Below, piece by piece: positions 15,250 to 52,414 of a stretch of 64,000 nucleotides of DNA. Source of the stretch: a candidate division WWE3 bacterium (GTDB lineage: Bacteria; Patescibacteriota; 4484-211; GCA-002791395). Each line of letters starts with the position of its first letter. Position 1 is the first letter of the stretch. The notes below the pieces were generated by a model, which searched no databases, was not told where the DNA came from, and worked only from the letters and a program-made list of their open reading frames with translations. The stretch is taken from contig JAAXWF010000001.1 of the NCBI GenBank assembly GCA_013335095.1, positions 292,268-356,267 on the forward strand, given 5' to 3'. The position numbers and the translations under genes are program-made.

Positions 15250-16824
15250 CTATTTTTTAACCGTATCAATGCCAATTACTTGAGAGATATGATTAAAGCC
15301 ATCTCGTTGAAGAAGTTCTTCCAAACCTAGATTTATCGATCCTATTAACTGTGGGCCAACAAAAATCATACCGGTAATAAGTTGTACCAAGCTTGCGCCA
15401 AGTCGTATCTTTGTATATGCATCTTCAGCCGAGAAGATTCCGCCACACCCAATAATGGTGAATCGCTCGTGATACGTGCCGTATGCCCGAGAAATTAATT
15501 CATTTGAGCGATTCCAGGTTGGTTTACCGCTAAAGTTTCCTACCGTAAACTGGTTTACTTCATCAGCTTGCAGTGGTTCGGCGGTCCTGTCTTTTTGCAG
15601 GTTTCCGACAATTATTCCGACAATCAAAGGTTCTTGAGCGAGCGTTTCTAATATGGCATCAAATTGATCATTTGTTACAGATATCGGCATTTTAACCCAA
15701 ATTGGACGGGTGATATTAAGTTTATGTACGCCTTGCAATAGTACCGAGAGATTATCCACGTTATAGAAATCTATTGAGGTTTGTAAATTCGGACAGCTAA
15801 TATTTAGTTCGTAATATGAATGAGAGAGCGTTGAGTGCTCGAACTTCTTAAATGTTTCGGTAATATCGATTACTGCATCCTCTACAGTTTGTATGTCTGA
15901 AGTATTTGTTGTTCCGATACTCACCCCTATTTGCCCAAACATTTCGTGTTTTGCCAGTTTTGTAATTACCGTGTCGGCTCCGGGGTTACGAAAGCCTTTG
16001 TTAACCATGAGCGATTGTGACTGTATCAATCGTCCAAGTTGTGGATCCGGATTACCCTGGCATGGTTTGTTGGTGATTGTTCCGATCGTTTGAAAACCGA
16101 ATCCCATGCTTTCTAGAATTTGAGTTAATTGAGCGTTGTAATCAAATCCGGCAGCTAACCCCACAGGAGAACTAAAGTGAACACCATGATACGCTTGGCA
16201 TAATTTTGAAGAATCATAGTCGTATAACCACGACATAAATGTTCTGGTTATGAGGCATTTTCCAAGTAATTCGCCCACGTTGGTCATACCTATGTGCACT
16301 GTTTGAGGCTTATGAGTAAACAGGAGTGGTTTTAGAACTCTTTGATATCCGATCTTAGTTGCAAAGCTTATTGTATCGACCCGTTCTCGTGTCATTATCA
16401 GCCATATAACCCCAGCGATTACAGTTGATATAAATGCTGATGTGGTGCAGAAAAGGCAGATCGCGCCAATGACAAAAATTTGTAAATACATAAAGTACAG
16501 TGAAGCGAAAAATCCTCCCGCACTGATAGGGTAGAGTAATCGATCGACAAACTTTGTCTTTGGATTTAAGGTTAGTAGCGTTACGGTAAGTATCGTCAGG
16601 TAATAAATAACGCCGATATATGCAAGTGGTATCGAAAATATTTGTGAATAGCTGCTCTGCAGGACACTTCCGCAGTCACTCGCCAAAAATCCGACGCTAC
16701 ATTGTGGTATTGTTCCTGTTGCATGCTCATATGATAGATACCCAGCGTCAAGTAGGCCGAAAGTTGCTAAGCTAAGTATCGAAAGCTTGGCGAAAGATAG
16801 TGAGTTTGATGTAGTGTGAGTCAC
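15250..16824 (-). CDS. Fusion protein: N-terminal VKOR (vitamin K epoxide reductase) membrane domain + C-terminal dihydroorotate dehydrogenase-like flavoenzyme domain
   Basis: VKOR loop Cys pair CSVGFLASDCGSVLQSSYSQ and the TM4 CXXC (ICLFCTT) across five predicted helices. The C-terminal half aligns to family-2 DHODH over its full length (GLAAGFDYN, GFGFQTIGTITNKPCQGNPDPQLGRL, NKGFRN, IIGCGGIFSAEDAYTKIRLGASLVQL), but the catalytic-base position reads NISCPN (Cys, as in family 1) rather than Ser. Confidence 0.7.
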   Translation of the reverse strand: MTHTTSNSLSFAKLSILSLATFGLLDAGYLSYEHATGTIPQCSVGFLASDCGSVLQSSYSQIFSIPLAYIGVIYYLTILTVTLLTLNPKTKFVDRLLYPISAGGFFASLYFMYLQIFVIGAICLFCTTSAFISTVIAGVIWLIMTRERVDTISFATKIGYQRVLKPLLFTHKPQTVHIGMTNVGELLGKCLITRTFMSWLYDYDSSKLCQAYHGVHFSSPVGLAAGFDYNAQLTQILESMGFGFQTIGTITNKPCQGNPDPQLGRLIQSQSLMVNKGFRNPGADTVITKLAKHEMFGQIGVSIGTTNTSDIQTVEDAVIDITETFKKFEHSTLSHSYYELNISCPNLQTSIDFYNVDNLSVLLQGVHKLNITRPIWVKMPISVTNDQFDAILETLAQEPLIVGIIVGNLQKDRTAEPLQADEVNQFTVGNFSGKPTWNRSNELISRAYGTYHERFTIIGCGGIFSAEDAYTKIRLGASLVQLITGMIFVGPQLIGSINLGLEELLQRDGFNHISQVIGIDTVKK

Positions 16825-16928: not shown

Positions 16929-17576
16929 ATGCAAAAAGATACGTATACTTTTTTGAATAGCTACTTTGAACATAATCCTATGCACCATTTGGATGCAGGG
17001 GATATCTTAGTCCATCCTTCAAACCATTCACCAAATCTTCATTTCTTAGTAAGCGGCACCATTAAACAATATTCTATTGGAAGTAACGGTGAGGAATTAG
17101 TTATAACGGTGTATAAGCCGGGTAGTTTTTTTCCTTTAATGACGGCGCTTGGCGATATTCCTAATCGATATTATTTTAGCGCGCCGGAAGAATCAGAGGT
17201 TCGGATAATCTCGGTGGATGAAGTTAAAGAATTACTTCAAAAAGAACCAACGATTATGTTTGATCTGATAGGACGATTACTCCGAGGTATGCACGGGATA
17301 ATTAGTCGTTTAGAGTCGATCGCATTGGGGGACGCCCATGCACGGGTTGGGACGATGATCGCAATAACAGCTAAGCGTTTTGGCAAAAAAAACGATACCG
17401 GGAGCTTGGAGATTTCTTTAACACATCAAGAGATTGCGGCTGCTACTGGACTTAACCGAGAAACAGTTACCCGAGTACTGCGACATTTTAAAGAGATGGG
17501 GTATATCGATGCCGAGCATGGACATTTATACGTTCGAGATATTTCTATACTCGAATCTTTAGTTGCCGGGGAATAA
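16929..17576 (+). CDS. Crp/Fnr-family transcriptional regulator
   Basis: N-terminal cNMP-binding beta-barrel pattern and C-terminal HTH (SLTHQEIAAATGLNRETVTRVLRHFKEMGYI). Confidence 0.65.
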   Translation: MQKDTYTFLNSYFEHNPMHHLDAGDILVHPSNHSPNLHFLVSGTIKQYSIGSNGEELVITVYKPGSFFPLMTALGDIPNRYYFSAPEESEVRIISVDEVKELLQKEPTIMFDLIGRLLRGMHGIISRLESIALGDAHARVGTMIAITAKRFGKKNDTGSLEISLTHQEIAAATGLNRETVTRVLRHFKEMGYIDAEHGHLYVRDISILESLVAGE

Positions 17577-17597: not shown

Positions 17598-17645
17598 AGG
17601 GCCGGCACCTTCTGATCTTGGTGATCAGTTGGTACCGGCCGTGTT
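17598..17645 (-). terminator. Intrinsic terminator downstream of island gene A
   Basis: On the minus strand: GGCCGGTACC...GGTGCCGGCCC stem enclosing an inner TGATC/GATCA palindrome, followed by a T-rich tract. Confidence 0.4.
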
Positions 17646-18221
17646 TTAGCGCGAAGGTCGAAGGACCTCGACCATGATCTGCTCTTTTAGGGCGGTTATC
17701 CCACCCTGCGAGAGCTTCTCGGTGATGAGGTCATGTCCGAGACCTGACCGTGCCGCCGCTGACCTCGCCCTCATCATATCGCCATATTGGCGGATGAGGT
17801 CTTCTACCGGCTCGTAGCCGGTGAAGCACTGGCCGAGCGTCATTGCGAGCAGGTTGGCTGGGATGCCGACCCGACGAGCCTGTATACGAAGGCTTTCCCG
17901 ATACTCACGTTCGGTAAGGTAACCTTCGTCCTCGTCTGGTTTCGGACGATGCCCGTTGAGCCGGTTGGTGCCGGCGAACCAGGCCGCTAGTTGTGCAATC
18001 TCTGGCTCGGTGGCTGCCCGTTTCGGGTCAGTTTTTCGAGTCAAAGCACACAGCTGAGCGGCGAGCTCGATGAACTCCCGGTCAACGATTATCGTGACCG
18101 GCTTGGGCTGGGCGATCGGCCGAGCCGGTCCCGACAACCCTTGACGCTTGAGCAGTTCGAGCGTTTTGGTTTTTCCGCCTCTAGCACCGTTATGTTGGTG
18201 CTTCCGTTGGGTGGTGGTCAA
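17646..18221 (-). CDS. Hypothetical protein (GC-rich island gene A)
   Basis: About 65 % GC. AAGGAGG RBS 5 nt upstream of a TTG start at 18221 (the ORF track extends to 18287). A consensus sigma70 promoter TTGACA-N18-TATAAT lies on the minus strand at 18258-18287. The product is Ala/Arg-rich with no recognised domain. Confidence 0.5.
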   Translation of the reverse strand: MTTTQRKHQHNGARGGKTKTLELLKRQGLSGPARPIAQPKPVTIIVDREFIELAAQLCALTRKTDPKRAATEPEIAQLAAWFAGTNRLNGHRPKPDEDEGYLTEREYRESLRIQARRVGIPANLLAMTLGQCFTGYEPVEDLIRQYGDMMRARSAAARSGLGHDLITEKLSQGGITALKEQIMVEVLRPSR

Positions 18222-18257
18222 GCCGACCTCCTTTGTTTTCAAAGAACTCGTTTTTAT

Positions 18258-18287
18258 ATTATAGGATAAAGATGTGTGTGTTGTCAA
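18258..18287 (-). promoter_or_regulatory. Consensus sigma70 promoter for island gene A (TTGACA N18 TATAAT on minus strand)
   Basis: Reverse complement of 18282-18287 is TTGACA and of 18258-18263 is TATAAT; the RBS and TTG start follow about 35 nt downstream. Confidence 0.5.
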
Positions 18288-18393
18288 AACGAAAAAACCC
18301 GGCCCTTTTTTCGCTCCCGAAGGAGAAAAATAGGTACCGGGTTGTGAAGAAGGGGACTGTGGTTAAGCCCCCTCCCTCTTCCGACTTAGCGAA
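18288..18393 (-). repeat. Structured repeat element copy 1 (UUCG-tetraloop hairpin nested in ACCCGG/CCGGGT stem) directly after stop of island gene B
   Basis: Shares about 90 nt with 19408-19504: ACGAAAAA(A)CCCGGCCCTTTTTTCGCTCC...GGAG...AGGTACCGGGT..GTG...CCGACT.GCGAACTA.GCC. The inner stem loop is CUCC-UUCG-GGAG on the minus-strand RNA. Confidence 0.55.
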
Positions 18394-19059
18394 CTAGGCC
18401 GCGGCCAGCTCGTGCTCGTGGATCACGGGCATCGGGCAGGTGCGCACCGGCTCCGGGGCCTTCTTGGCGGCGATGGCCGCCTCGAGGGCCGAGAAGTCGA
18501 CCTCACACTCCTCCTTGAGGATGCGGGTGACCTCGTTGGTGTCGATGCCAGCATCGGCGGCCTGCTTGCGCAGCTTGGCCAGGAGAGTGTGGCGGTGGTT
18601 GTCCGCCTTCTTCTTGGCCTCGGCCTTTTCGACCTCGAGCTCGGCGCGGCGCTCGATGAGCGCGCGCTTGGCCAGGCGGAACTCGTCGTCCCAGCCTCGG
18701 GCAATGATCTGCCCGAAGTTGGCCTTGCCCATCCCGAGTTCCTCGGCCTGCTTAAGCAGCGACCGCTTGATCTCGATGAGCTTGGTGTGGCGCAGCTTGG
18801 CCTGGTAGCGCTGCTCATAGAGCTTTGCCACCTCGGCGAGGGCTTCGGCGTTCTGCGCCTGGGCGACCTCGTCGACGCGGTACTCGATGCCGCGGTCGTG
18901 GCTCCAGTTGAGTAGCGCCAGCTTAGCCTTGAGCAGCATCAACTCCTCGAACTCCATCTCGCTGCCGTTCTTGCTCGTGAGCCCAGCGCGGCGGGCGCGG
19001 GGGCCGATGTCGGCGCGGAGACGGATGAGCTGGCTCTGCTGGCTGTTGTCGGTAGTCAT
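18394..19059 (-). CDS. Hypothetical coiled-coil protein (GC-rich island gene B)
   Basis: 221 aa at about 68 % GC; GAGGAG RBS 8 nt upstream of ATG. Charged/Ala-rich heptad segments (KRALIERRAELEVEKAEAKKKAD). Confidence 0.5.
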   Translation of the reverse strand: MTTDNSQQSQLIRLRADIGPRARRAGLTSKNGSEMEFEELMLLKAKLALLNWSHDRGIEYRVDEVAQAQNAEALAEVAKLYEQRYQAKLRHTKLIEIKRSLLKQAEELGMGKANFGQIIARGWDDEFRLAKRALIERRAELEVEKAEAKKKADNHRHTLLAKLRKQAADAGIDTNEVTRILKEECEVDFSALEAAIAAKKAPEPVRTCPMPVIHEHELAAA

Positions 19060-19228
19060 GGGAGATTCTCCTCATGCATGTGGGGCATCTGCCCCATATC
19101 TTGACCACTAGGTCTCCATAAGACTGGGCGAGCCCTTTTTAGGGGGCGGCCCATCATTCCGACGGGTTGAGGGCGTGAGCCCTCTCCGAACCCCCGAAGG
19201 GGTCCCAAGTTACCCCGCCAGGCGGGTT

Positions 19229-19282
19229 ACTATGGGTGAACCAACTTGTCGATCTGTATCAACCGGTTAATTCACCCATAGT
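19229..19282. repeat. 12-bp perfect inverted repeat ACTATGGGTGAA...TTCACCCATAGT with 30-nt spacer, upstream of island gene B
   Basis: Read directly from the sequence. A second copy of the same arm sequence with a different spacer lies at 20366-20431 upstream of gene C. Confidence 0.6.
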
Positions 19283-19407
19283 TGTTCGCATTTACTTTGA
19301 AAAGTACGGTGTAATAACGTGTGTGTTATTACGGCAAACGGTTCTTATATTATAGCGAAATAGGGGATAAAAGTCAATTGCTATGGGGTAGTTGTGCGTA
19401 GCGTATA

Positions 19408-19504
19408 ACGAAAAACCCGGCCCTTTTTTCGCTCCTTGCGGAGGAATTAGGTACCGGGTGGTGGTGGGAGTCCCGGAGGACTCCCGCCGATCCGACTGTG
19501 CGAA
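19408..19504 (-). repeat. Structured repeat element copy 2 (GCAA-tetraloop version) directly after stop of island gene C
   Basis: Same element as 18288-18393; the inner hairpin here is CUCC-GCAA-GGAG on the minus strand, a compensatory GNRA loop in place of UUCG. Confidence 0.55.
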
Positions 19505-20179
19505 CTACGCCACCTTCTTGCCCTTCTTGCCACCGCCCTGCTTGTGCAGGGGCTGCTCGTTCGAGGGCCCCTTGGGGTTGGGGTTGCCGACGTTGGTGCG
19601 GCCACCCGGGGCGCGGTGCTGGGCGCTGGTGGCCTGCTTGGCCTCGATCTGGTCGAGCCAGTCGGTGAACAGCGCGTAGTTGCGCTGCGCGACGGCCTCG
19701 GCGAGGCGGGTCTCGCGGGTGCGGGTGTCGATGCCCATCTTCTTGGCGCGGAGGAGCAGGAAGCCGCGGTAGGTGCGGTCCTGCTGCATCTCGCGGATGC
19801 GCTCGTCGCGCTCCGTGGCCTCGGCCTCGAAGGTGCTCTTGGCGACCGCCTGCTGGGCGGCCTTAGCCTCGAGCTGGACAGCCTGCTCGCGCTTGGCGAT
19901 CCGGGCCTTGTAGCCCTTCATGCCGTTGGCGCGCTGGCGGAGCTTCTTGGCGTCCTCGGGGCAGATGCCCACGAGGTCGAAGAAGCTCACGTCGTTCAGG
20001 CCGACCGACGTGGTGAGCTCGAACAGCTCGAACGCCGCGTCGAGCGCGGCCTGGTCGATGCTGTGGAGCCTCATGACGATCTTCGCCCGGTCGGGGTTGC
20101 CGACGTTGGGGACGATCCCGAGCTTGCTGGCGCGGCTGACGTTGCGGGCGCGGAGCTCGAGGGTGCTGTTCGTCGTCAT
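19505..20179 (-). CDS. Hypothetical protein (GC-rich island gene C), distant paralog of gene B
   Basis: Start taken at MTTNSTLELRARN (the ORF track begins 16 codons earlier). Its N-terminus shows limited similarity to gene B (TT.S..L.LRA....RA..G). About 66 % GC. Confidence 0.45.
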   Translation of the reverse strand: MTTNSTLELRARNVSRASKLGIVPNVGNPDRAKIVMRLHSIDQAALDAAFELFELTTSVGLNDVSFFDLVGICPEDAKKLRQRANGMKGYKARIAKREQAVQLEAKAAQQAVAKSTFEAEATERDERIREMQQDRTYRGFLLLRAKKMGIDTRTRETRLAEAVAQRNYALFTDWLDQIEAKQATSAQHRAPGGRTNVGNPNPKGPSNEQPLHKQGGGKKGKKVA

Positions 20180-20365
20180 GGTAGGGCCGTTCCTTTCTGC
20201 GGGGGCGAGAAGCCCCCCTAGAGCCACCTGATGTGGTGGCCTCCTGGGCTAGGGACACAGCGACGCGCTGGTCCCTCCTGGGGTAAATGGTGGGTTTAAC
20301 CCCACCGGTGCGGCAAAGGTTGCCGCTCCACCCAACCGGGCGTGGGTTTCCCACGTGCCGGCCAT

Positions 20366-20431
20366 TTATGGGTGAATAGAGGCGCCTAGGAGGGCCCCAA
20401 TAAAGGGGTAAGCACCTCTGTTCACCCATAA
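20366..20431. repeat. Inverted repeat TTATGGGTGAA...TTCACCCATAA (about 44-nt spacer) upstream of island gene C
   Basis: Same arm sequence as the inverted repeat at 19229-19282; its inner part carries an additional imperfect palindrome (AGAGG.GC / GCACCTCT). Confidence 0.55.
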
Positions 20432-20597
20432 AAGCAGGAAAAAGGAACGAAAGGACTACCAATAAACGTAGTTCTTAAGTCGTGATGAAAATGTGCAAAG
20501 GGTATCTTATAAAAGTACCCCGTAAGCCCTGATAAGAGCTTACGTAATTATTATAGGGCATATTAGTGCCGAAAGTCAAGAGTTATGGGGTATAGAA

Positions 20598-20674
20598 TGG
20601 TACGCCCGGAGGGATTCGAACCCCCGATCTTCAGGACCGGAACCTGACGCTTTATCCAGCTAAGCTACGGGCGC
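20598..20674 (-). tRNA. tRNA-Arg (anticodon CCG), CCA encoded
   Basis: Manual fold of the reverse complement: acceptor GCGCCCG/CGGGCGT (with a G1-U72 pair), D-arm GCTT-AGCTGGATA-AAGC, anticodon stem TCAGG/CCTGA with loop TTCCGGT (anticodon CCG), T-arm GGGGG-TTCGAAT-CCCTC, discriminator A, CCA. Lies at the edge of the GC-rich island. Confidence 0.8.
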
Positions 20675-21753: not shown

Positions 21754-23148
21754 TTAGACTCTTAGCCCTAGCTCTGCGATCCAGTGCTCGGTGATTGCCC
21801 GGGTTCGTTCTACCGCCTGACCCAAGTAGTGTGTGGGGTCGTCAAAAAGCTGAAGCTCGGCCGGTTGGAACTGCCGCAAATACGGCTCGAGCGATGTGGT
21901 CTTTTGCGCAACCATGAGCAGTGTCTCGTTTGGAACAAGCGAACGACGCATCTCGTTGGTTACGAGTCTAACCGCCTCATGTGCATCTGGATGGCCGTAT
22001 TTGGCCAGCAGAATGTATAGCGGTTCGGCCATGGTTAAATCGGCCATGAACGAAACGTTGGCGCTCATTTGGCGTCGGTTTACCGCCAACTTTCGCATCG
22101 CCCGGTTCAGTCGAGTAATCATATTCGCCAGATATGCGACGATCTCGACCATTGTTCGGCCCGACGCCGATCCGGTTAAATCCCGCTGATGCTCGCTGAT
22201 CTGGTCAAGCATCACCGTGACCATTCTTCCTACAAGTACCTTCCATTGGCTCTCGATCTGCTCGAACGTGATCGGGTTCTTTTTGTGCGGCATGGTCGAT
22301 GATCCGACGTCCGCTCGACCCTGAACTTCTCCGACCTCATTGATTTCGGTGCGTTGCAGATGCCTCATATCGCGGGCAATATTGGCCAGGATTCCTCCGG
22401 TAAATGCCAACTCATTCATCAACCGCATCATCGGCTCGGGGGGAGCGATCTGGGTTGAATGAATGTCGCTCGAAAGACCAAGAGCCGACATTACCACCTG
22501 CTCATGGGCGAATCCATCGTCCACAACGAGCTGCATCGCGTTGTACGAACCAACCGCTCCGGAAAACTTACCGACCAATTGTCCGGTAAGCGTCGTGAGC
22601 ATGTTGATCGAATTGCCGAGTCGGTTGATGTATCCACATACGGTGAACCCGAATGTGACCGGTACGGCATGCTGACCATGGGTTCGGCCGATCTGGATGG
22701 TGAGCGCCTCGTTTTTAGCGATAGCGACGAGCGTCTCCAGCAGATCAATAAGCCGAGGGATAATCACATCATCCATCACTTCGGTCATGCGCAGCGCATT
22801 GGCCGTATCGATAATGTCGTATGACGTTGCCCCGAGATGGACGTACTGCCGCATATCTGGGGGGAGTAGCGACGTGAATACATTCACCAGTGCCCGGATG
22901 TCGTGATGGATTCGATCCTCTTCGGCATACACCGCTTCGGTCGTAACCTTTTGGCTTGCCTCAAGTGCCGCCTGGCATACCTCATCGGTGCAGACCCCGG
23001 CATCGCATAATGCGCTTAAGTGAGCAAGTTCGACACGTAGCAGATATCCCGTGAATGCTTCTGCACTAAGTCTCTTTGCGACCTCGCTATCATAGTAGCG
23101 ATAATCGAGCGGCGATATGGCATCAAATCTTCCCGATCTCTGAGTCAT
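21754..23148 (-). CDS. purB: Adenylosuccinate lyase
   Basis: N-terminal ISPLDYRYYD motif and fumarate-lyase signature GSSTMPHKKNPITFE; 464 aa. Confidence 0.75.
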   Translation of the reverse strand: MTQRSGRFDAISPLDYRYYDSEVAKRLSAEAFTGYLLRVELAHLSALCDAGVCTDEVCQAALEASQKVTTEAVYAEEDRIHHDIRALVNVFTSLLPPDMRQYVHLGATSYDIIDTANALRMTEVMDDVIIPRLIDLLETLVAIAKNEALTIQIGRTHGQHAVPVTFGFTVCGYINRLGNSINMLTTLTGQLVGKFSGAVGSYNAMQLVVDDGFAHEQVVMSALGLSSDIHSTQIAPPEPMMRLMNELAFTGGILANIARDMRHLQRTEINEVGEVQGRADVGSSTMPHKKNPITFEQIESQWKVLVGRMVTVMLDQISEHQRDLTGSASGRTMVEIVAYLANMITRLNRAMRKLAVNRRQMSANVSFMADLTMAEPLYILLAKYGHPDAHEAVRLVTNEMRRSLVPNETLLMVAQKTTSLEPYLRQFQPAELQLFDDPTHYLGQAVERTRAITEHWIAELGLRV

Positions 23149-28254: not shown

Positions 28255-28793
28255 CGCACCCTCCTGTGCTCATTGTTCCCATTTACACTATCGGACCTCG
28301 TTTACCACTGTCTTGATTATATCTGTCCAATTCTACTAACTTATATTTAAATTTAAGCTTAGTTTTTTAGTTATTGTGTTTTACTGCTGAGTCGGTGTTT
28401 CTGTTTCTATCCCATCCATAGGCTAGGGTTAATAAAGTTTAGTGAATGAGAATAATTATCACTTAATTATCAAATAGTGCCAGTGAGTAAAAAGATTACC
28501 CTTAATATTGGTGCGGGTTGCGATTGAGTTAATAACGAAGATGTTGATTTAACTTTGTCATGTAGGACGTTTTAGCTTTTTTCGAGTACTATTATTTATC
28601 TATGTGTCTATTTTTGTTCTTCAAAAAGCAACCTAGTGAATGTTGTGCTACGTTTTTCAAAATGAGAATTGTACTATGAGTAATATTATGGGCGGCAGAT
28701 CTGTATGCAGAAAAAGTCGTTGAACTATTGGATATGAGAAAGGCCGGGCCCCCTTTCTCGGGAACCCGGCCGTGCTTGTGCAGAAAATTACCT

Positions 28794-29351
28794 TTACGGA
28801 TAGTAGGCCATGTAAACTACGAGTTTGCCGGAGTCACCCGCGCTAAAATCAGCGTAGGTGAGAATCCGGTCGAACGAATCAGGCGGGGTAGTCGTGATGG
28901 CGCCTGCCATCAGATACCCCGTGAACTTGAAGCCACTCCCATTGGGGCCGCTGCCGACGCCGATGAACATGGCGTCGCCGTTGGCGATGAAGAGAGGCGT
29001 GTGGCCGTCGATCGTCTGGTCGACGATGGTTCCGTCACGGTGGATGGTGACCTTGACGTAGGTCACCTCATCGCCGATGGTCCCATTGTCTGAGAAGGTC
29101 GACTTGACCCGCAGGGCGGGGTGTCGATCAAACGCCCCGGTGTCGGTCACGTTGACCGGCAGCTCCAGCTCGCGCTGGATCTCATCGAGGAGGATGTAGC
29201 TGAGCCCGGGAGCCGCGTAGACGGTTTTGAAGTTGTACGCCGGGATCGTTCCCAGCTCGGGCTTCTTGACCTGGCCGGTGTTACCGCCACAGGCCGACAG
29301 GATCCCGAGGGCGACCAAGCTGGCCAGCGCGATCAGGATTTTGCGAAGCAT
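28794..29351 (-). CDS. Lipoprotein, hypothetical (GC-rich islet)
   Basis: Signal peptide with the lipobox LSAC (MLRKILIALASLVALGILSACGG); about 62 % GC versus a 450-bp AT-rich non-coding flank. A GAGGGAG RBS is present, and a hairpin terminator lies at about 28745-28790 on the minus strand. Confidence 0.5.
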   Translation of the reverse strand: MLRKILIALASLVALGILSACGGNTGQVKKPELGTIPAYNFKTVYAAPGLSYILLDEIQRELELPVNVTDTGAFDRHPALRVKSTFSDNGTIGDEVTYVKVTIHRDGTIVDQTIDGHTPLFIANGDAMFIGVGSGPNGSGFKFTGYLMAGAITTTPPDSFDRILTYADFSAGDSGKLVVYMAYYP

Positions 29352-29571
29352 TGGCTTCTCCCTCTAGTAACGGGGCCACCATTAGGCCCCTATCCGTAAG
29401 ACACCCACCATCCCGCGTTGGGAGGGTGCAGACAAGCGGTTACTTATTATAATCACCTGGCTGCACCTTTCCATCGAGAGTAAGTAGGTGTGCTATACAT
29501 ATGTAAAAGTACGATATATCCGCACCATAATGCGTACTTTAATAATACTATAGGTGGATTTGTGGGCAAAT

Positions 29572-47176: not shown

Positions 47177-47253
47177 GGGCGCGTAACTCAGTTGGTTAGA
47201 GTATCAAGCTTATACCTTGAAAGTCCCTGGTTCGAGTCCAGGCGCGCCCACCA
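47177..47253 (+). tRNA. tRNA-Ile with anticodon UAU (ATA-decoding), CCA encoded
   Basis: Manual fold: acceptor GGGCGCG/CGCGCCC, D-arm ACTC-AGTTGGTTA-GAGT, anticodon stem TCAAG/CTTGA with loop CTTATAC (anticodon TAT), T-arm CCTGG-TTCGAGT-CCAGG, discriminator A, CCA. Confidence 0.7.
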
Positions 47254-47622: not shown

Positions 47623-47699
47623 GGGCCTGTAGCTCAGTTGGCTAGAGCGCATGCATCGCACGCATGAGGTCAGGGGTTCGAGTCCCCTCAGGTCCACCA
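47623..47699 (+). tRNA. tRNA-Ala (anticodon CGC), CCA encoded
   Basis: Acceptor GGGCCTG/CAGGTCC with a G3-U70 pair (the Ala identity element), anticodon stem CATGC/GCATG with loop ATCGCAC, T-arm AGGGG-TTCGAGT-CCCCT, discriminator A, CCA. Confidence 0.75.
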
Positions 47700-48447
47700 T
47701 TTATCATTTATTGAGTACGAAGATTATTAGATTATAAAATTCACGGACTCTATCTATATATAACATTGCACCTCCTCCTACAAGAAAGTACGGTGTCGCT
47801 TTGCCTAAATTAATAGCCGCATTCTCTACGTATGGCTCAATTGCATGAACTAAAAACCACTTGAATAATCGGTCTCGTTTGTTTGGGGTTGTGTATTTTT
47901 TCTTCATCATTCTATTCGTATCTTACAAACTAAGTGCCCGTTTCTTATATATTTCAGTTTTTAGCAATTTCTCCGTTGGTGCTCTTACTTCTTATGATTA
48001 AAATTGCTGGGAAGTACTCCATGTTCTATAAGATCACTCTACTTGCCTGAGTTATAAAGATAACGACTTTGCTTTTTGATTCGCGTATAAAAAAAGCCGC
48101 TCCTGTATATCTCAAACTCTTTCGAGTTCCCGGACTAAGTTCTTTTCTTTAGTTCGGTAGATAGACACGAGCGGCGCCTTTTGTTTAGGTAGCCTCCTCT
48201 TGATTTGAATTTATTATACCACCAGTCCGGTTGATTGGTTGAGTCATGTTAGATGTGTTTGTCGATTGCTTGGAGTGTTTGCTAATTGTTGGGTCGGTTA
48301 AATCGCTGCAACTTTATCGTAATTTTCTTTGAAGAATGAACCGTCACCGTAAAACCAGTGGTGCACTCCTATCTTGATGCAAGCTGTTCGCTTATAGATA
48401 TTTATGGTTATTGCAGAGCTTGTATACTCCGACTTGAGGCCTATAGT

Positions 48448-48476
48448 TTGACGATTTTGTGCTTTTCCCGTATACT
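48448..48476 (+). promoter_or_regulatory. Sigma70-type promoter TTGACG-N17-TATACT for family B member 1
   Basis: Preceded by the CCTATAGTT motif; the GCCAC putative +1 follows the -10 hexamer. Confidence 0.55.
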
Positions 48477-48519
48477 AAAGCCACTTCATGTCCGTGGAAT
48501 TAACTAAAGGAGGTAGCCA

Positions 48520-49302
48520 ATGGCTACTATTCGAGGACGGAGTCTTGGACGGCTAAAGTTTGCCGAAGTCGAAGAGCTTTGCCCGATCCGGTGCGTGATT
48601 CACGACCAGCGGGTGACCCGTGATCAGATCGTTCATCCCGCTCCGGCTGAAGGGCGACTGATCAACAACCGAGGCTTCGCGTATGGCGAACTGACGAGCT
48701 CAGTTCAGGGGCCATTTCTGGTTCTGAATCATCCGGGTCTCTACAAGGGTACCAGGATGGTTCATTATGGCATGCACCAACAGCCCCTGAATTTCGAGGC
48801 TATTGAGGGGTATGAGATCCTCGAGGGTGATGTTCCCTCATTCGATCTCGGCATGCTTGAGCCTCGGCCGAATCGTCCCGCCGATGTGCGGGGGTGGAGC
48901 CTGTATGCCTACCTCACCGAGCGGTTCGGCAAGCATGACGCCGTGCTTGTCACCTGGCACAAGCCGGATGGCCGCCTCTACGACAGAGGTTTTTGGCCTA
49001 CCTATTTTCCGGTGACGCCGTCCGGGTTCGATCAGATTGCGGCACGTGAGTTGTTGGGGGAAAGCTATGTGCATAACCCCTACGGCCAAATGCCTGTGTC
49101 TTTGATCGAGCTGCTGATTGGCGGCCAGCTCGAGTACGTTGTACCTGGGAATCCGATCCCAGGAGATGTCCCGGCGACAGTCCAGATCTGGCCCAAAGCC
49201 AGACGGCTGGAGCGCTCGGATGCGTCCGTGATATGGGTGCAAGTCTCGGCCCACGCGCGGATGTTTGATGACATGGCTCCGGGAGCCATTAGTCTCGCCT
49301 AA
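48520..49302 (+). CDS. GC-rich paralog family B, member 1 (hypothetical; no zinc ribbon)
   Basis: AGGAGGTAGCC-A-ATGGCT start context shared with members 2-4. N-terminus MATIRGRSLGRL...ELCP and core LNHPGLYKGTRMVHYG are shared with the other members. About 60 % GC. Terminator at 49321-49350. Confidence 0.55.
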   Translation: MATIRGRSLGRLKFAEVEELCPIRCVIHDQRVTRDQIVHPAPAEGRLINNRGFAYGELTSSVQGPFLVLNHPGLYKGTRMVHYGMHQQPLNFEAIEGYEILEGDVPSFDLGMLEPRPNRPADVRGWSLYAYLTERFGKHDAVLVTWHKPDGRLYDRGFWPTYFPVTPSGFDQIAARELLGESYVHNPYGQMPVSLIELLIGGQLEYVVPGNPIPGDVPATVQIWPKARRLERSDASVIWVQVSAHARMFDDMAPGAISLA

Positions 49303-49364
49303 GTTATTTCGAAAACGGAAAGGCAGGGGAAATTCCTCTGCCTTATTTTTTATTAACCCATAGT

Positions 49365-49393
49365 TTGACTTGTTCATTACTTTTTCTTATACT
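49365..49393 (+). promoter_or_regulatory. Sigma70-type promoter TTGACT-N17-TATACT for family B member 2
   Basis: CCCATAGTTTGACT...TATACTAATGCCAC; the spacing was counted by hand. Confidence 0.55.
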
Positions 49394-49435
49394 AATGCCA
49401 CATTTCGTATCGGAGACTATATAAGGAGGTAGCCA

Positions 49436-50497
49436 ATGGCTGCTGAGTTGGATACGGGAAATTTGTCCGATAAAACCTGGCGCGAGATCGCAGGGTTGTG
49501 TCCGTTGTCTGTTCGACTGATGCAAGGTCCCCTCGATGATTCCGTTTCGATCATACATCCAAACGGGACCGAAGGGGAGTTGACCGTCGTAATCCATGAT
49601 AACGGCTGGATTTTTCGCCATTCTGCCCTGCATAATGGCGAGGTGCAGATACCAGCGGCAGAGGGTGATGCGACACCGGCGGCATCGAGGATATCTCTTC
49701 GGATTTATGAAAATCCGGTGGTGGTGTGCCCAGTGTGTAGGCATCGTAACGACCCGACTTATCGATATTGTGATAACTGTGGGGCTGACCTAAGGTTTGG
49801 TGATGAGCGACGAGGGGCACCACGCGCTAAACCGTGGGTTGATAAACAGCCCTATCTTGCCGAACCGTTCCAGCCTACATTTGTCTCTCAATGTCCGGCA
49901 TGTGGGGCCTCGACTTTCGGGTATGAACAGTTCTGTGATAGTTGTGGGGCTCATCTTCGTCTTGGGAAGGCCACTATTAACCCACAGGGCGATCAGGCAC
50001 TCCCGCTTATTGCTTCCGCACCAGCTTCTTTTCAGTTGGAGCTAAACCCAAGTGTGGTGTTGCATACCACAACTTACAGGGAGCTGAAGCGGCGTTTTGG
50101 TGAGCACCGTGGAGTGTATATCACCTGGCAGGTGAGTTCTGGGGGCGCCCGGTATGGAGGTAATTACCCGTCGATAGTTTTCGCGGTTGACCCTGATGAG
50201 ATGCAGCGCATCGTAGCTCTGTCGGGTTACGGTAGCCGATGTCGGGTTTTGCCATACTCTTCAATGAACGACGCCTTAATTGCGCGTTTGCTCTCGGAAG
50301 AGGTGGTACAAAACCTCCCGATTCCACCCGAAGTTTCAAACATTCGGGCGGGGTTTGACGTCATGAGCGGACTTGCTTTGCTGGTGCAAGATAATGAAGC
50401 TCAGGTGATTGCTGTCGTTGTGGGAACCCATGCACTGCCATCTGAACTTCGTCGGCTGGGGTTGATCTCTGACGAAGAGGGTCCAGCCTCTGCCTAA
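49436..50497 (+). CDS. GC-rich paralog family B, member 2 (two zinc-ribbon modules; hypothetical)
   Basis: Double zinc ribbon CPVCRHRNDPTYRYCDNCGADL and CPACGASTFGYEQFCDSCGAHL. The C-terminal block RCRVLPYSSMNDALIARLL...ELRRLGLISDEEG is shared with member 3. Terminator at 50515-50540. Confidence 0.55.
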   Translation: MAAELDTGNLSDKTWREIAGLCPLSVRLMQGPLDDSVSIIHPNGTEGELTVVIHDNGWIFRHSALHNGEVQIPAAEGDATPAASRISLRIYENPVVVCPVCRHRNDPTYRYCDNCGADLRFGDERRGAPRAKPWVDKQPYLAEPFQPTFVSQCPACGASTFGYEQFCDSCGAHLRLGKATINPQGDQALPLIASAPASFQLELNPSVVLHTTTYRELKRRFGEHRGVYITWQVSSGGARYGGNYPSIVFAVDPDEMQRIVALSGYGSRCRVLPYSSMNDALIARLLSEEVVQNLPIPPEVSNIRAGFDVMSGLALLVQDNEAQVIAVVVGTHALPSELRRLGLISDEEGPASA

Positions 50498-50558
50498 TTC
50501 ATGTGTGCGATGTTGCCGGGGAGAAATCCTCGGCTTTTTTATATCTATACCCCATAGT

Positions 50559-50587
50559 TTGACTTGTCCTTTGTTTTTTCTTATACT
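50559..50587 (+). promoter_or_regulatory. Sigma70-type promoter TTGACT-N17-TATACT for family B member 3
   Basis: CCCCATAGTTTGACT...TATACTAATGCCAC. Confidence 0.55.
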
Positions 50588-50629
50588 AATGCCACTTCGT
50601 ATATCCTGGATTATCTAAGGAGGTAGCCC

Positions 50630-51616
50630 GTGGCTATCAGAGGTCGCTATCTTGGTCATTCCCGCTTGTTCGATCTTGCGGCGTTAACTCCGCTCGAATG
50701 CGAGTTACGCTATGCACTGCCGTCAGACCCGGAAGCCTTGCTTCCATCAGACGCCGACAGTCCTGATCCGTACATTCCGGGAACGTTGACCCTCGATTTT
50801 GAGGGTGAGGGACTGGACATGTTGGTGTTACGCCATCCTGGACTTAAAGGTGGCGAACTGCGTGTTCCATTTGGTGATCGCGAGAATCCGCTGACCCATT
50901 ACGGGGTTCAAGTGTTTGCTTTGATCGAAGGCACTTTCCGCAGCACCTGCCCGATGTGCCATGCTCCCAGTGTGGTCCCTGAACAGCGCTTTTGTGAGGC
51001 GTGCGGTGCGAGCCTCGTGGTCTCATTTGGACGACGACGGCAAACCGCAGTGAGTAGCATCATGCCGTGGGGGACGTCCGACATCGACTATGAAGTGGGT
51101 GCAGGGCGAGTTCTGGGACCGAACATTACTGTTGCCGCTGTTCCCCTCAAGGTTAAAGCATCCCATGGGGATGCGTTACCGCCTGAACTCATCAAATTTG
51201 AGGCTCACCTGGTGTATCGGGCGCTGAAAAAGCGAGTCGGTCACCACCTGGCGATGGGTGTGGTATGGCGAACCGAAAATGGTAGCGATGATGAGGAACT
51301 GTGTTTTCGTCCGTTGCTTTTCGCCATGGATGTGGGCCTGGCAGCGGACCTTGTATCACAAGGTTCTCATGTCGTTCGTCGATATCGGGTGCTACCGTAT
51401 TCCGATATCAATGAGGCGCTCGTTGCTTTGCTGGTTGATGATTCTCGCCAACAGCACCAGCTTGCCAGTGTCGATGGGAGACCAGCCGTGCTGGAAGTGT
51501 TTGAGTCAGTGATTTCGTTGAATTCACAACTGGAATATCCGGTTGTTTCGTTGATTATTTCAGCAAACGCTCACCCAGACGAGCTCGCTCGACTTGGGCT
51601 TTTGTTTGCTGACTAA
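50630..51616 (+). CDS. GC-rich paralog family B, member 3 (one zinc ribbon; hypothetical)
   Basis: GTG start in the same AGGAGGTAGCC context. Motifs MAIRGRYLG, RHPGLKGGELRV, CPMCHAPSVVPEQRFCEACGASL, RYRVLPYSDINEALVALLV...ELARLGLLFAD. Terminator at 51638-51664. Confidence 0.5.
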   Translation: MAIRGRYLGHSRLFDLAALTPLECELRYALPSDPEALLPSDADSPDPYIPGTLTLDFEGEGLDMLVLRHPGLKGGELRVPFGDRENPLTHYGVQVFALIEGTFRSTCPMCHAPSVVPEQRFCEACGASLVVSFGRRRQTAVSSIMPWGTSDIDYEVGAGRVLGPNITVAAVPLKVKASHGDALPPELIKFEAHLVYRALKKRVGHHLAMGVVWRTENGSDDEELCFRPLLFAMDVGLAADLVSQGSHVVRRYRVLPYSDINEALVALLVDDSRQQHQLASVDGRPAVLEVFESVISLNSQLEYPVVSLIISANAHPDELARLGLLFAD

Positions 51617-51676
51617 TCAGTTGTATCGGTAAACCAGGCCGGGGAGAAATCCTCGGCTTTTTATTAATCCTATAGT

Positions 51677-51705
51677 TTGACTTTATCCCGGATTTTCTTT
51701 ATACT
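51677..51705 (+). promoter_or_regulatory. Sigma70-type promoter TTGACT-N17-TATACT for family B member 4
   Basis: CCTATAGTTTGACT...TATACTAAAGCCAC. Confidence 0.55.
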
Positions 51706-51755
51706 AAAGCCACGTCATAAGTCTGGAGCGCTTCGGCGCGTTACGGAGGTAACCG

Positions 51756-52277
51756 ATGGTTATCACTAGTAGGTCGGATTTAAACCGACTGCCAATCGGG
51801 GAGATCGGACGGATGTGTCCTATGTATGTGGAACTCGCACAAATAGGACCAGAGGACTATGCCCCTGGCGTAGATAGTTCGGGGCATCCCTGTCAGAAGG
51901 CCACCTACAACTATGTTAAGGGGTGGCTAACGGCAGAGGAGATCCCGCACTTCTGGGTGTTTCGGCATCCCGGGTTGAAGAACGGAAAGCTTCGGGTCTC
52001 TGCATTCAATTCGGATGTTAAGCCGGGATTCTACAACGTTGCCCTGTATCGCTGTGACGCCCCGGCTGTGGTGGCGTCAACTCCGCCGGCTGAGTGCCCC
52101 AACTGCGGGGCGCCTATTCCGCCGGATCCTGCCGTTCGCTTCTGCGACGTCTGCGGGACATCGCTTGAGCCAATGCCTGAGTCGGCGACGCCGAATGGAC
52201 GATTTCAGATCGGGGTGAATGCCAAGATCACCTGCACCCCATCAGGCATATCAATCGTCTTCAACGTCGACGAGTAA
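51756..52277 (+). CDS. GC-rich paralog family B, member 4 (short form, one zinc ribbon; hypothetical)
   Basis: Motifs RHPGLKNGKLRV and CPNCGAPIPPDPAVRFCDVCGTSL; 173 aa, lacking the C-terminal block of members 2 and 3. Confidence 0.5.
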   Translation: MVITSRSDLNRLPIGEIGRMCPMYVELAQIGPEDYAPGVDSSGHPCQKATYNYVKGWLTAEEIPHFWVFRHPGLKNGKLRVSAFNSDVKPGFYNVALYRCDAPAVVASTPPAECPNCGAPIPPDPAVRFCDVCGTSLEPMPESATPNGRFQIGVNAKITCTPSGISIVFNVDE

Positions 52278-52414
52278 CGTTCACTATTCGCGTCGGTCAA
52301 AACGGGGCAGGGGATGGTTTATCCATCCTCGGCCCTGGGATTATATTTTTCCCGGTTTGTTACAATACATCTGTTGATACACTAGCCCATTAACCATGGC
52401 TTGGAGGTAATTCT

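Follow-up and report, generated by a model that had tools for sequence, protein, structure and literature searches.

Why do three adjacent genes of a bacterium with an otherwise ordinary base composition carry a strongly GC-rich coding style, and did they come from elsewhere? The stretch of DNA analyzed here, a 64-kb window from a WWE3 (Katanobacteria) bacterium, contains such an island at 17.6-20.6 kb, with three minus-strand genes that we call A, B, and C, next to a gene for tRNA-Arg(CCG). An earlier note on this DNA had proposed that the island was acquired horizontally, possibly from a high-GC actinobacterial donor. Our results lead us instead to a tentative reading, held with somewhat more doubt than confidence, in which A, B, and C are monocistronic cassettes that form a native cluster specific to this lineage, with messages that have been selected to be compact and self-protecting, and in which a recent import is rejected. 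The background composition is ordinary for the phylum, given that the window as a whole has a GC content of 45 % and a published closed WWE3 genome one of 43 % (PMC3812714).

Composition, promoters, and flanking RNA elements

The jump in GC content that the earlier note had described was borne out: in 300-nt windows, GC rises from 0.38-0.45 to 0.55-0.70 across 17.55-20.4 kb, dips to 0.49-0.53 at two internal promoter/leader stretches, and is back to about 0.44 at the tRNA. The three minus-strand genes and the adjoining tRNA-Arg(CCG) were likewise recovered (by coordinates, ARAGORN, and Rfam). Gene A (17646-18221) encodes 191 aa, a call on which NCBI and the Logan assembly agree, gene B (18394-19059) encodes 221 aa, and gene C (19505-20179) encodes 224 aa; their products are identical to the NCBI entries HGA91_01665, HGA91_01670, and HGA91_01675. 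The GC content of these genes is 0.59-0.69, against a background of about 0.41, and codon periodicity is unmistakable in all three. Specifically, GC is 0.59 in A, 0.66 in B, and 0.69 in C, with values at the first, second, and third codon positions (GC1/GC2/GC3) of 0.65/0.47/0.65, 0.68/0.39/0.92, and 0.65/0.44/0.98, respectively. Flanking genes have a GC of about 0.40 and a GC3 of 0.30-0.37, and the housekeeping genes of the window have a GC3 of 0.29-0.41. A second, mostly unannotatable gene population across the whole window reaches 0.43-0.66, and extreme GC3 is limited to B, C, and a further gene, D (0.82), with no other gene above 0.82. The leaders and spacers, read directly, are AT-rich wherever they are unpaired, and the remaining open reading frames (ORFs) of the island are frame artifacts of high GC. 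The tRNA-Arg(CCG) gene (20598-20674, minus strand; Rfam tRNA, 65.9 bits) faces the island with its 3' end and is a neighbor, not demonstrably a part of the unit.

In a promoter scan scored against TTGACA-N17/18-TATAAT, where 12 is a full match, the cluster has three consensus sigma-70 promoters, one per gene, against 2.5 expected promoter-like sites of any quality. The promoter of A (18258-18287, minus strand, as are all features of the cluster) is TTGACA-N18-TATAAT and scores 12/12; together with the Shine-Dalgarno (SD) sequence AAGGAGG and the TTG start at 18221, it is as the earlier note had read it. The promoter of B (19349-19390) consists of an upstream CTACCCCATAG followed by TTGACT-N17-TATAAT, and that of C (20550-20595) of the upstream element CTATACCCCATAA followed by TTGACT-N18-TATAAT, each scoring 11/12. 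A shared motif, CTA(T)ACCCCATA(G/A), lies just 5' of the -35 hexamer in the B and C promoters and again in promoters at 49.35 and 50.55 kb, where it precedes TTGACTT and where the promoters belong to an unrelated paralogous orphan family. The expression signals of B and C are thus native in type, since the upstream motif recurs at other promoters of the genome. As for the region in which it recurs, four tandem paralogous orphan genes lie at 48400-52300 on the plus strand, two of them with zinc ribbons and all with a GC3 of 0.50-0.64. Each has a near-identical module of promoter and ribosome-binding site (RBS), (CTATACC)CCATAGTTTGACTT-N-TATACTAA(A/T)GCCAC ... AAGGAGGTAGCC-ATGGC, whose upstream CCCATAG element also stands in front of B and C.

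Between promoter and start codon, B and C have the multi-hairpin leaders that had been noticed before, with fold z-scores of -7.0 to -10.1 when a diverged counterpart of the locus on another contig (L001, described below; leader z -7.0) is included. The leader of B (19060-19342, about 285 nt) has a minimum free energy (MFE) of -128 kcal/mol and a z of -7.2; it runs from an AU-rich hairpin through a long stem with a conserved base (19229-19282) to UUCG-capped and otherwise capped hairpins, and its SD and AUG are predicted to lie within a local hairpin, CAUGAGGAGAAUCUCCCAUG. The leader of C (20180-20544, about 365 nt; MFE -183.6 kcal/mol, z -10.1) opens with a 10-bp hairpin (20521-20544) at the predicted 5' end of the transcript and continues with the long stem with the conserved base (arms 20421-20431 and 20366-20376) and a multi-hairpin GC-rich domain. 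This whole domain is shut by a 13-bp closing helix (20434-20449 with 20188-20200), in which CGUUCCUUU..CUGC pairs with GCAG AAAGGAACG and which is predicted to take the SD AAAGGA into pairing. UUCG, GNRA-type, and similar loops close the downstream hairpins of the leaders. In both genes, the predicted folds keep the RBS largely paired (unpaired probability 0.23 in C and 0.28 in B, against a window median of about 0.39). In the consensus of the B and L001 leaders (two sequences), 10 of 48 pairs still form although both of their bases differ.

The conserved stem of these leaders, UAUGGGUGAA/UUCACCCAUA, is present in both B and C. It corresponds to the inverted repeats TATGGGTGAA/TTCACCCATA that the earlier note had found upstream of the two genes; they lie at 19231-19280 and 20367-20430, where chance would give 0, and a third copy lies in L001. 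Each forms the base of a leader hairpin of some 25 bp. The lowest 10-11 bp do not differ between the B, C, and L001 copies, while the upper stem varies in sequence and in length (31-45 nt between the arms) and still pairs, including by G-U. In B, the stem folds at -32.6 kcal/mol in the sense strand versus -23.4 kcal/mol in the antisense strand. The repeats had been proposed as a shared operator, and the part of this proposal that stands is the conservation of the arm sequences; the variable spacing, the extended stem, and the sense-strand folding lean toward RNA. An RNA stem is tentatively preferred over a DNA operator because the intervening sequence always extends the stem and the G-U pairs favor the sense strand, and the modeled folds point to an RNA stem with a sequence-specific reader, a role of the DNA being conceivable but less likely.

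At the other end of the transcripts, the repeated element with UUCG and GCAA hairpins is also confirmed, each copy beginning at the stop codon of its gene. The copy behind B (18285-18396, 112 nt) has a fold z of -4.9, a covariance-model score of 123.6 bits, and an inner UUCG hairpin; the copy behind C (19403-19507, 105 nt) has a z of -5.1, a score of 99.9 bits, and GCAA in its inner hairpin. L001 holds a third copy with a different inner stem and loop, and the folds of the element range from z -4.9 to -5.8. In C, the order is stop codon, conserved box UAGUUCGCACAGUCGGA, variable hairpin, terminator, and U-run, an arrangement that the B copy repeats, and the conserved box takes in the stop codon itself (UAGUUCGCAC-GUCGGA). 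The outer stem of the terminator, ACCCGGUACCU/AGGGCCGGGU, is invariant, and the inner hairpin loops are UUCG, GCAA, and UAGUAA. The stem ACCCGGUACCU...AGGGCCGGGU is followed by UUUUU(U) in B and C and by UUAUUUU in L001, a sequence layout that marks it as a predicted intrinsic terminator. Among the three sequences, 6 of 32 pairs likewise persist with both bases altered, though this set and that of the two leaders are too small for statistics. The functional RNA structure for which the tetraloops had been taken to argue is supported, as a putative composite intrinsic terminator with a preceding hairpin, free in sequence and conserved in pairing across three copies. The covariance model of the element matches at full strength only in B and C, and weakly at the terminators of A, of D, and of a gene at 48.5 kb. 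Against Rfam 15, only the tRNA matches, with the best other scores at or below 22 bits versus gathering scores of 42-70, and the window shows no enrichment of sites that could pair with the 3' box. One of the weak matches to the model is a terminator hairpin, GGCCGGUACC...GGUGCCGGCC (17600-17640, minus strand; MFE -30.4, z -8.4), that sits between the convergent genes A and crp.

Structure in the coding regions and a diverged counterpart

The folding of the coding regions was compared with that of synonymous recodings that preserve protein and codon usage; the strictest version also preserves every dinucleotide count. Under the strictest shuffles, the z-scores are -4.8 for A, -2.9 for B, -2.6 for C, -3.8 for the B orthologue in L001, and -4.1 for D; under looser shuffles, they are -7.0, -2.9, -2.8, -3.75, and -4.8, in the same order, and block-local shuffles agree. 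Six low-GC control genes gave z-scores of -0.8 to +1.3 under the strictest shuffles. Across 20 further genes, those with a GC3 of at most 0.41 ranged from -1.7 to +1.5 and those with a GC3 of at least 0.43 from -1.3 to -6.0. These comparisons suggest that a raised GC3 is accompanied, in this genome, by mRNA structure that has been selected, with B and C at the extreme end.

Viewed across the window, the genes fall into two classes: annotatable housekeeping genes, with a GC3 of 0.29-0.41 and no excess mRNA structure, and a second class of mostly family-less genes, with a GC3 of 0.43-0.98 and significant excess structure in their coding regions. The gene purB (21754-23148) is annotatable and yet in the higher class, with a GC3 of 0.61. 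Gene D (28794-29351) forms a fourth, stand-alone high-GC cassette within 28735-29470 on the minus strand, with a GC3 of 0.82 and no family match. Its product is a 185-aa predicted lipoprotein (MLRKILIALASLVALGILSACGG). A TATAAT promoter of its own and a GC-rich leader of some 100 nt precede the gene, and the cassette closes with a GGCCGGG...CCCGGCC terminator.

The evidence that bears most directly on the age of the composition comes from a single homologue of B, P0003, which is 44 % identical over the full length (E 9e-33) and lies on two short Logan contigs, L001 and L002 (2.4 kb), from other sequencing runs. The order on L001 is that of the window, with a leader containing the inverted repeat, the B orthologue, the 3' element, a promoter, a small ORF, a terminator, a convergent Crp gene, and a gene fusing VKOR to dihydroorotate dehydrogenase (DHODH); the slot of A is occupied by an unrelated 72-aa ORF without similarity to A. 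L001 belongs to a different organism, given that it comes from other sequencing runs and that the Crp proteins of the two loci are only 56 % identical, with saturated synonymous sites (pS 0.80). The B orthologue in this organism nevertheless has a GC3 of 0.86, next to a Crp gene with a GC3 of 0.34. At amino acids shared by B and P0003, the codons coincide 62 times where the codon usage of each gene would give 57.3, no more often than chance, and the synonymous sites have therefore been randomized and are still G or C. Had the gene arrived just once, in the distant past, and then drifted, its composition would long since have ameliorated. Hence, either the composition is actively maintained in WWE3, or both lineages have recently received diverged copies from an unseen GC-rich reservoir.

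Around the cluster, the conserved convergent neighbor of the cassettes is a Crp/Fnr-family regulator (16929-17576, plus strand; Pfam cNMP_binding and HTH_Crp_2), followed by a single ORF of 524 codons (15250-16824, minus strand) in which a VKOR domain is fused to DHODH, a fusion kept in the L001 organism; dnaA and dnaN lie about 6-10 kb away from the island. No Crp-type site, TGTGA-N6-TCACA, occurs anywhere in the window with at most one mismatch. In L001, TGTGATCCACATCACG (1036-1051) matches 9 of the 10 positions of this consensus; it adjoins the convergent Crp-family gene and is centered about 41 nt upstream of the predicted transcript start of the small ORF, whose promoter has no -35 hexamer. 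Further tRNA genes, for tRNA-Ile(TAT) (47177-47253, plus strand) and tRNA-Ala(CGC) (47623-47699, plus strand), lie close together with no rRNA match nearby. With tRNA-Ala(CGC) and tRNA-Arg(CCG), the window holds two C34 tRNAs that read codons ending in G; B and C show no enrichment of CGG, which makes up 6 of 67 Arg codons.

Proteins, database searches, and competing explanations

The three proteins are helical, lack signal peptides, and have pI values of 8.5-10. Protein A has a basic N-terminal tail (pI 9.8); protein B is all-helical (AlphaFold2 pLDDT 83), with a C-terminus, PMPVIHEHELAAA, that is conserved in its sole homologue; and protein C consists of helices only (pLDDT 70), is basic (pI 10.0), and has a disordered tail ending in KKGKKVA. 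Within gene C, a 21-nt repeat (19576-19596 and 20089-20109; 20/21 identical) encodes NVGNP(D/N) close to both protein ends. Scans of A, B, C, and D against Pfam, PHROG, NCBIfam, and PADLOC returned nothing above noise, and structure and profile comparisons gave no fold or family relatives for the A, B, and C proteins, in line with the novelty that the earlier note had assigned to the three genes and with the missing integrase. The weak paralogy that it had seen between B and C was not recovered (BLASTP E=64, hhalign E=0.28); B matches A at E=0.034, confined to a 39-residue motif, and what all three share is the motif LRxQAxxxGI(D/P), with B and C also alike in their all-helical layout. An identity as phage scaffolding or tape-measure proteins was considered and rejected (PHROG E only 0.013 and 0.048; best Foldseek match against BFVD, E 0.28), and no virion genes lie near A, B, and C.

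B is a translated, fast-evolving gene, given that its annotated frame is the only one free of stops in both orthologues and that substitutions between B and P0003 follow the order position 3 > position 1 > position 2 (0.48/0.41/0.33); the approximate dN/dS is 0.65. Long antisense ORFs in B and C were set aside as by-products of high GC3, with stops in at least one orthologue. Genes engaged in interactions or conflicts typically show such fast divergence and slot turnover. The tails of the proteins offer a lead, and only that: the last residues are PMPV(I/V)xxxELAAA in B and in its orthologue and GGGKKGKKVA in C. In Escherichia coli, ClpX recognizes C-motif-1, xAA (LAA in SsrA), and C-motif-2 (RAKKVA in YbaQ, HARKVA in PaaA) (PMC9775585, Table 2). 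ELAAA in B resembles the first and GKKVA in C the second, a likeness to motifs defined in E. coli that spans 3-5 residues, and by this analogy the two tails are candidate ClpX degrons.

The searches for relatives covered a wide range of sequence. An exhaustive HMMER profile search with B (1.84e9 representatives of 15e9 proteins) returned B itself, P0003, and a weak repeat-motif hit, and A and C matched only themselves in a word-indexed search of 5.8e9 proteins. The repeat-motif hit, P0005, matches only a 30-residue motif and was judged uninformative as a relative of B. This protein, encoded outside the window, has 675 aa and eight 66-residue repeats (…PEVRRELEKRGVDVNRTLRIVQEEETQADFIDNVEKIYKETGRMP…), of which one segment each weakly matches the B motif LRKQAADAGIDTNEVTRILKEE; we take the repeats to resemble those of helicase-associated domains. 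Nothing similar to the cluster was found in 2.9 M viral contigs (IMG/VR), 50,697 phage records (INPHARED), 72,556 plasmid records (PLSDB), or JGI metagenome contigs, and in blastn against phages and plasmids, the tRNA was the sole match. DNA patterns of the 3' element and the leader repeat gave only chance matches inside high-GC coding DNA of viral and metagenome contigs, and a Crp-anchored scan of genome contigs, with patterns that were too specific, gave only an unrelated deltaproteobacterial Crp. Hence, the proposed comparison with high-GC organisms, phages, and plasmids revealed no relatives of A, B, and C. The searchable literature contains nothing that describes such genes in WWE3 or in the candidate phyla radiation (CPR).

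Several observations weigh against a native origin maintained by selection on the message. The coding regions of B and C exceed their recodings in structure to a moderate degree (z about -2.6 to -2.9), and RNA structure alone does not obviously require 92-98 % G/C at third positions; the codon usage is exactly that of a high-GC genome. The accessibility of the B and C RBSs is low and yet not extreme within the window. Further, L001/L002 is the sole comparator locus, with the promoter of its B orthologue and the upstream side off the contig, and A and C have no orthologue in its visible part, so part of the cluster is evolutionarily young or mobile. Finally, in the Logan assembly of the source sample (SRR11449211), contig L003 begins at 20627 and its neighbor L034 stops at 20598, an overlap of exactly 30 nt. 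Logan assemblies use k=31, and such an overlap therefore marks a branch of the graph at the 3' end of the tRNA: some other sequence in the sample has this tRNA end in common and departs from it thereafter, perhaps because it comes from a strain whose downstream region differs. A population-level presence/absence of the cluster is thus possible, given that the branch falls precisely at the tRNA 3' end, and this branch is the best remaining argument for a mobile cassette.

That argument belongs to an explanation that we consider unlikely, although it has to be reckoned with: an unsampled mobile element with a GC-rich coding style, be it a plasmid, a phage, or an integrative element of WWE3 or of its partners, might repeatedly deliver complete cassettes downstream of tRNA-Arg, with two lineages having acquired B independently and together with its promoter, leader, and 3' element. 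Besides the graph branch, the adjacency to the tRNA 3' end would fit, as would the modular content of the cluster, with the slot of A replaced in L001 and with A and C as orphans; promoter, leader stem, and 3' modules common to nonhomologous ORFs are what would be expected of cassettes, and genomic islands are common in Patescibacteria (PMC12455944). The tRNA-linked islands of Patescibacteria and the CPR resemble the cluster in their atypical GC content, tRNA adjacency, and hypothetical-gene cargo (PMC12455944). They differ in that the WWE3 cluster has no integrase or other mobility gene, no attachment-site (att) direct repeat, no element genes, and no donor relatives, and in that its locus is occupied in a diverged relative, where GC3 is still extreme, and carries native-type promoters. 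Specifically, no direct repeat of the tRNA 3' end of at least 11 nt occurs within 17.0-21.0 kb, including near the distal boundary, where the earlier note had suggested looking for one, and a 30-mer of this end has no second occurrence in the window, not even when 3 mismatches are tolerated. In the one relative compared, the site is not empty, with B beside Crp and VKOR-DHODH; both organisms thus share the flank, and the upstream promoter motif also stands at chromosomal genes 30 kb away. The lack of any likeness in the viral, phage, plasmid, and metagenome collections likewise speaks against such an element. Integron cassettes were also considered and rejected, given that each unit has its own promoter and that neither IntI nor R''/R' core sites were seen by inspection.

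A recent and not yet ameliorated transfer from a high-GC donor, such as an actinobacterium, is decidedly unlikely. It would readily explain the GC3 of 0.92-0.98 with a codon table of the high-GC type and the position next to a tRNA, and the many window genes without a Pfam match at a GC3 of 0.5-0.66 could be read as an amelioration series. However, neither the exhaustive profile search with B nor the word-indexed searches with A and C found a high-GC homologue, and there are no integration scars. Further, the syntenic orthologue of B has a GC3 of 0.86 despite synonymous saturation, and the consensus promoters are AT-rich and carry the native upstream motif. The proteomes of genomes with 70 % GC are Lys-poor, unlike B, whose GC2 (0.39) is host-like despite its extreme GC3 and which has 8-9 % Lys. 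A recent actinobacterial origin is therefore unlikely because of the missing donor and scars, the native motif, and the GC2 and Lys content of B, and the transfer proposed earlier is not supported.

We regard it as highly unlikely that the transcripts act mainly as RNAs, be it as large structured RNAs or as small RNAs (sRNAs) from a 3' untranslated region (UTR) with the UUCGCAC-GUCGGA box as a seed, and that the ORFs are secondary or dual-function. The noncoding modules of B, C, and L001 are better conserved than the proteins, their fold z-scores are very strong, the structure excess runs through the ORFs, and the promoter-to-terminator layout is like that of noncoding RNA genes. This explanation is opposed by the clear codon periodicity (0.65/0.44/0.98 in C), by the single frame that stays open in both B orthologues with its substitution order, by the absence of Rfam matches, and by the lack of enrichment of sites complementary to the box. 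Scarcely any credence is due to a local neutral process, GC-biased gene conversion or regional mutational bias, that lifted GC without selection: high GC is indeed regional, covering three adjacent genes, but it follows codon position and ends at the ORF borders, with AT-rich promoters, spacers, and first leader hairpins; unconstrained intergenic sites of the island are less GC-rich than third codon positions, no paralogous copies exist as conversion partners, and the isolated gene D, 9 kb away, has the same pattern. An assembly chimera, or a contaminating high-GC fragment in a WWE3 contig, would suit the abrupt change in composition and the one junction at the graph branch in the tRNA, but it can be dismissed for practical purposes, with the native promoter motif directly after the tRNA and a chimera excluded on the Crp side by the independent Logan contig L003 (no mismatch over the 12,234 nt that run from within the tRNA across the island, Crp, DHODH, hisS, dnaA, and dnaN) and by the same B-Crp-VKOR adjacency in a second organism from other runs.

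A possible mechanism and its known relatives

If the cluster is native and its messages are under selection, the observations can be joined into a mechanism. Each cassette would be strongly transcribed from its consensus sigma-70 promoter, and the transcripts of B and C would be self-structured from end to end: 5' hairpins, the stem with the conserved base, and a multi-hairpin domain that pairs the RBS would be followed by a coding region that has been pushed to G/C at almost every third position and folds better than its synonymous recodings, and the transcript would end in the conserved box, the variable hairpin, and the composite terminator. The extreme GC3 may be held by selection at the RNA level, in that it would resist RNases and, for a poorly translated message, Rho. 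Judging from the behavior of untranslated RNAs, such protection would be needed because the message is presumably abundant but translated only once the leader opens. The outcome would be long-lived mRNAs whose translation is gated at the leader. In this mechanism, a trans-acting factor common to the cassettes, whether an RNA-binding protein or an enzyme of the RNase III type, could dock or cut at the conserved stems; the 3' box, like the stem bases, hints at such a reader. One possibility is that an RNase III-type cut releases the SD while a stabilizing hairpin stays behind. The products would be fast-evolving, cytoplasmic, helical proteins, and the levels of B and C may be set by gated translation against rapid turnover, because both have tails like ClpX motifs.

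More speculatively, and with little expectation that it holds as stated, the cassettes might represent a class of WWE3 orphan genes with self-protecting, leader-masked mRNAs, saturated with GC at their synonymous sites and folded along the whole ORF, stored messages that a shared RNA-binding or RNA-cleaving factor releases, for example, upon contact with a partner cell. A bolder variant would have the high-GC codon style matched to a high-GC partner organism that expresses the messages or the genes.

Compositional islands are routinely scored as recent horizontal transfers, and here a GC3 of 0.9 or more appears to outlast synonymous randomization. If our reading is correct, the cluster would be a clear case of RNA selection holding the synonymous-site composition in a bacterium with a reduced genome, and it would caution against taking GC islands in the CPR for transfers. 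In that event, the leader and 3' RNA modules, together with the orphan proteins, would be entry points to posttranscriptional control in an uncultured phylum.

Structured leaders that stabilize or gate mRNAs are known from the 5' UTRs of ompA and cspA, from the leaders of S-layer mRNAs, and from the stable, masked hok mRNA. With these, the WWE3 cassettes share a strong promoter, a long folded leader with a 5' hairpin and a paired RBS, and a robust 3' hairpin. Unlike in these systems, however, structure and GC richness in WWE3 run through the whole ORF of 190-224 codons, and the base of the leader stem is conserved across nonhomologous genes and belongs to no Rfam family. The 3' elements, for their part, resemble intrinsic terminators and 3'-UTR sRNAs in having a GC stem and a U-run after the ORF, with a conserved single-stranded box upstream, but unlike in plain intrinsic terminators, the outer stem of the WWE3 element encloses a second, tetraloop hairpin, and a covarying hairpin precedes it.

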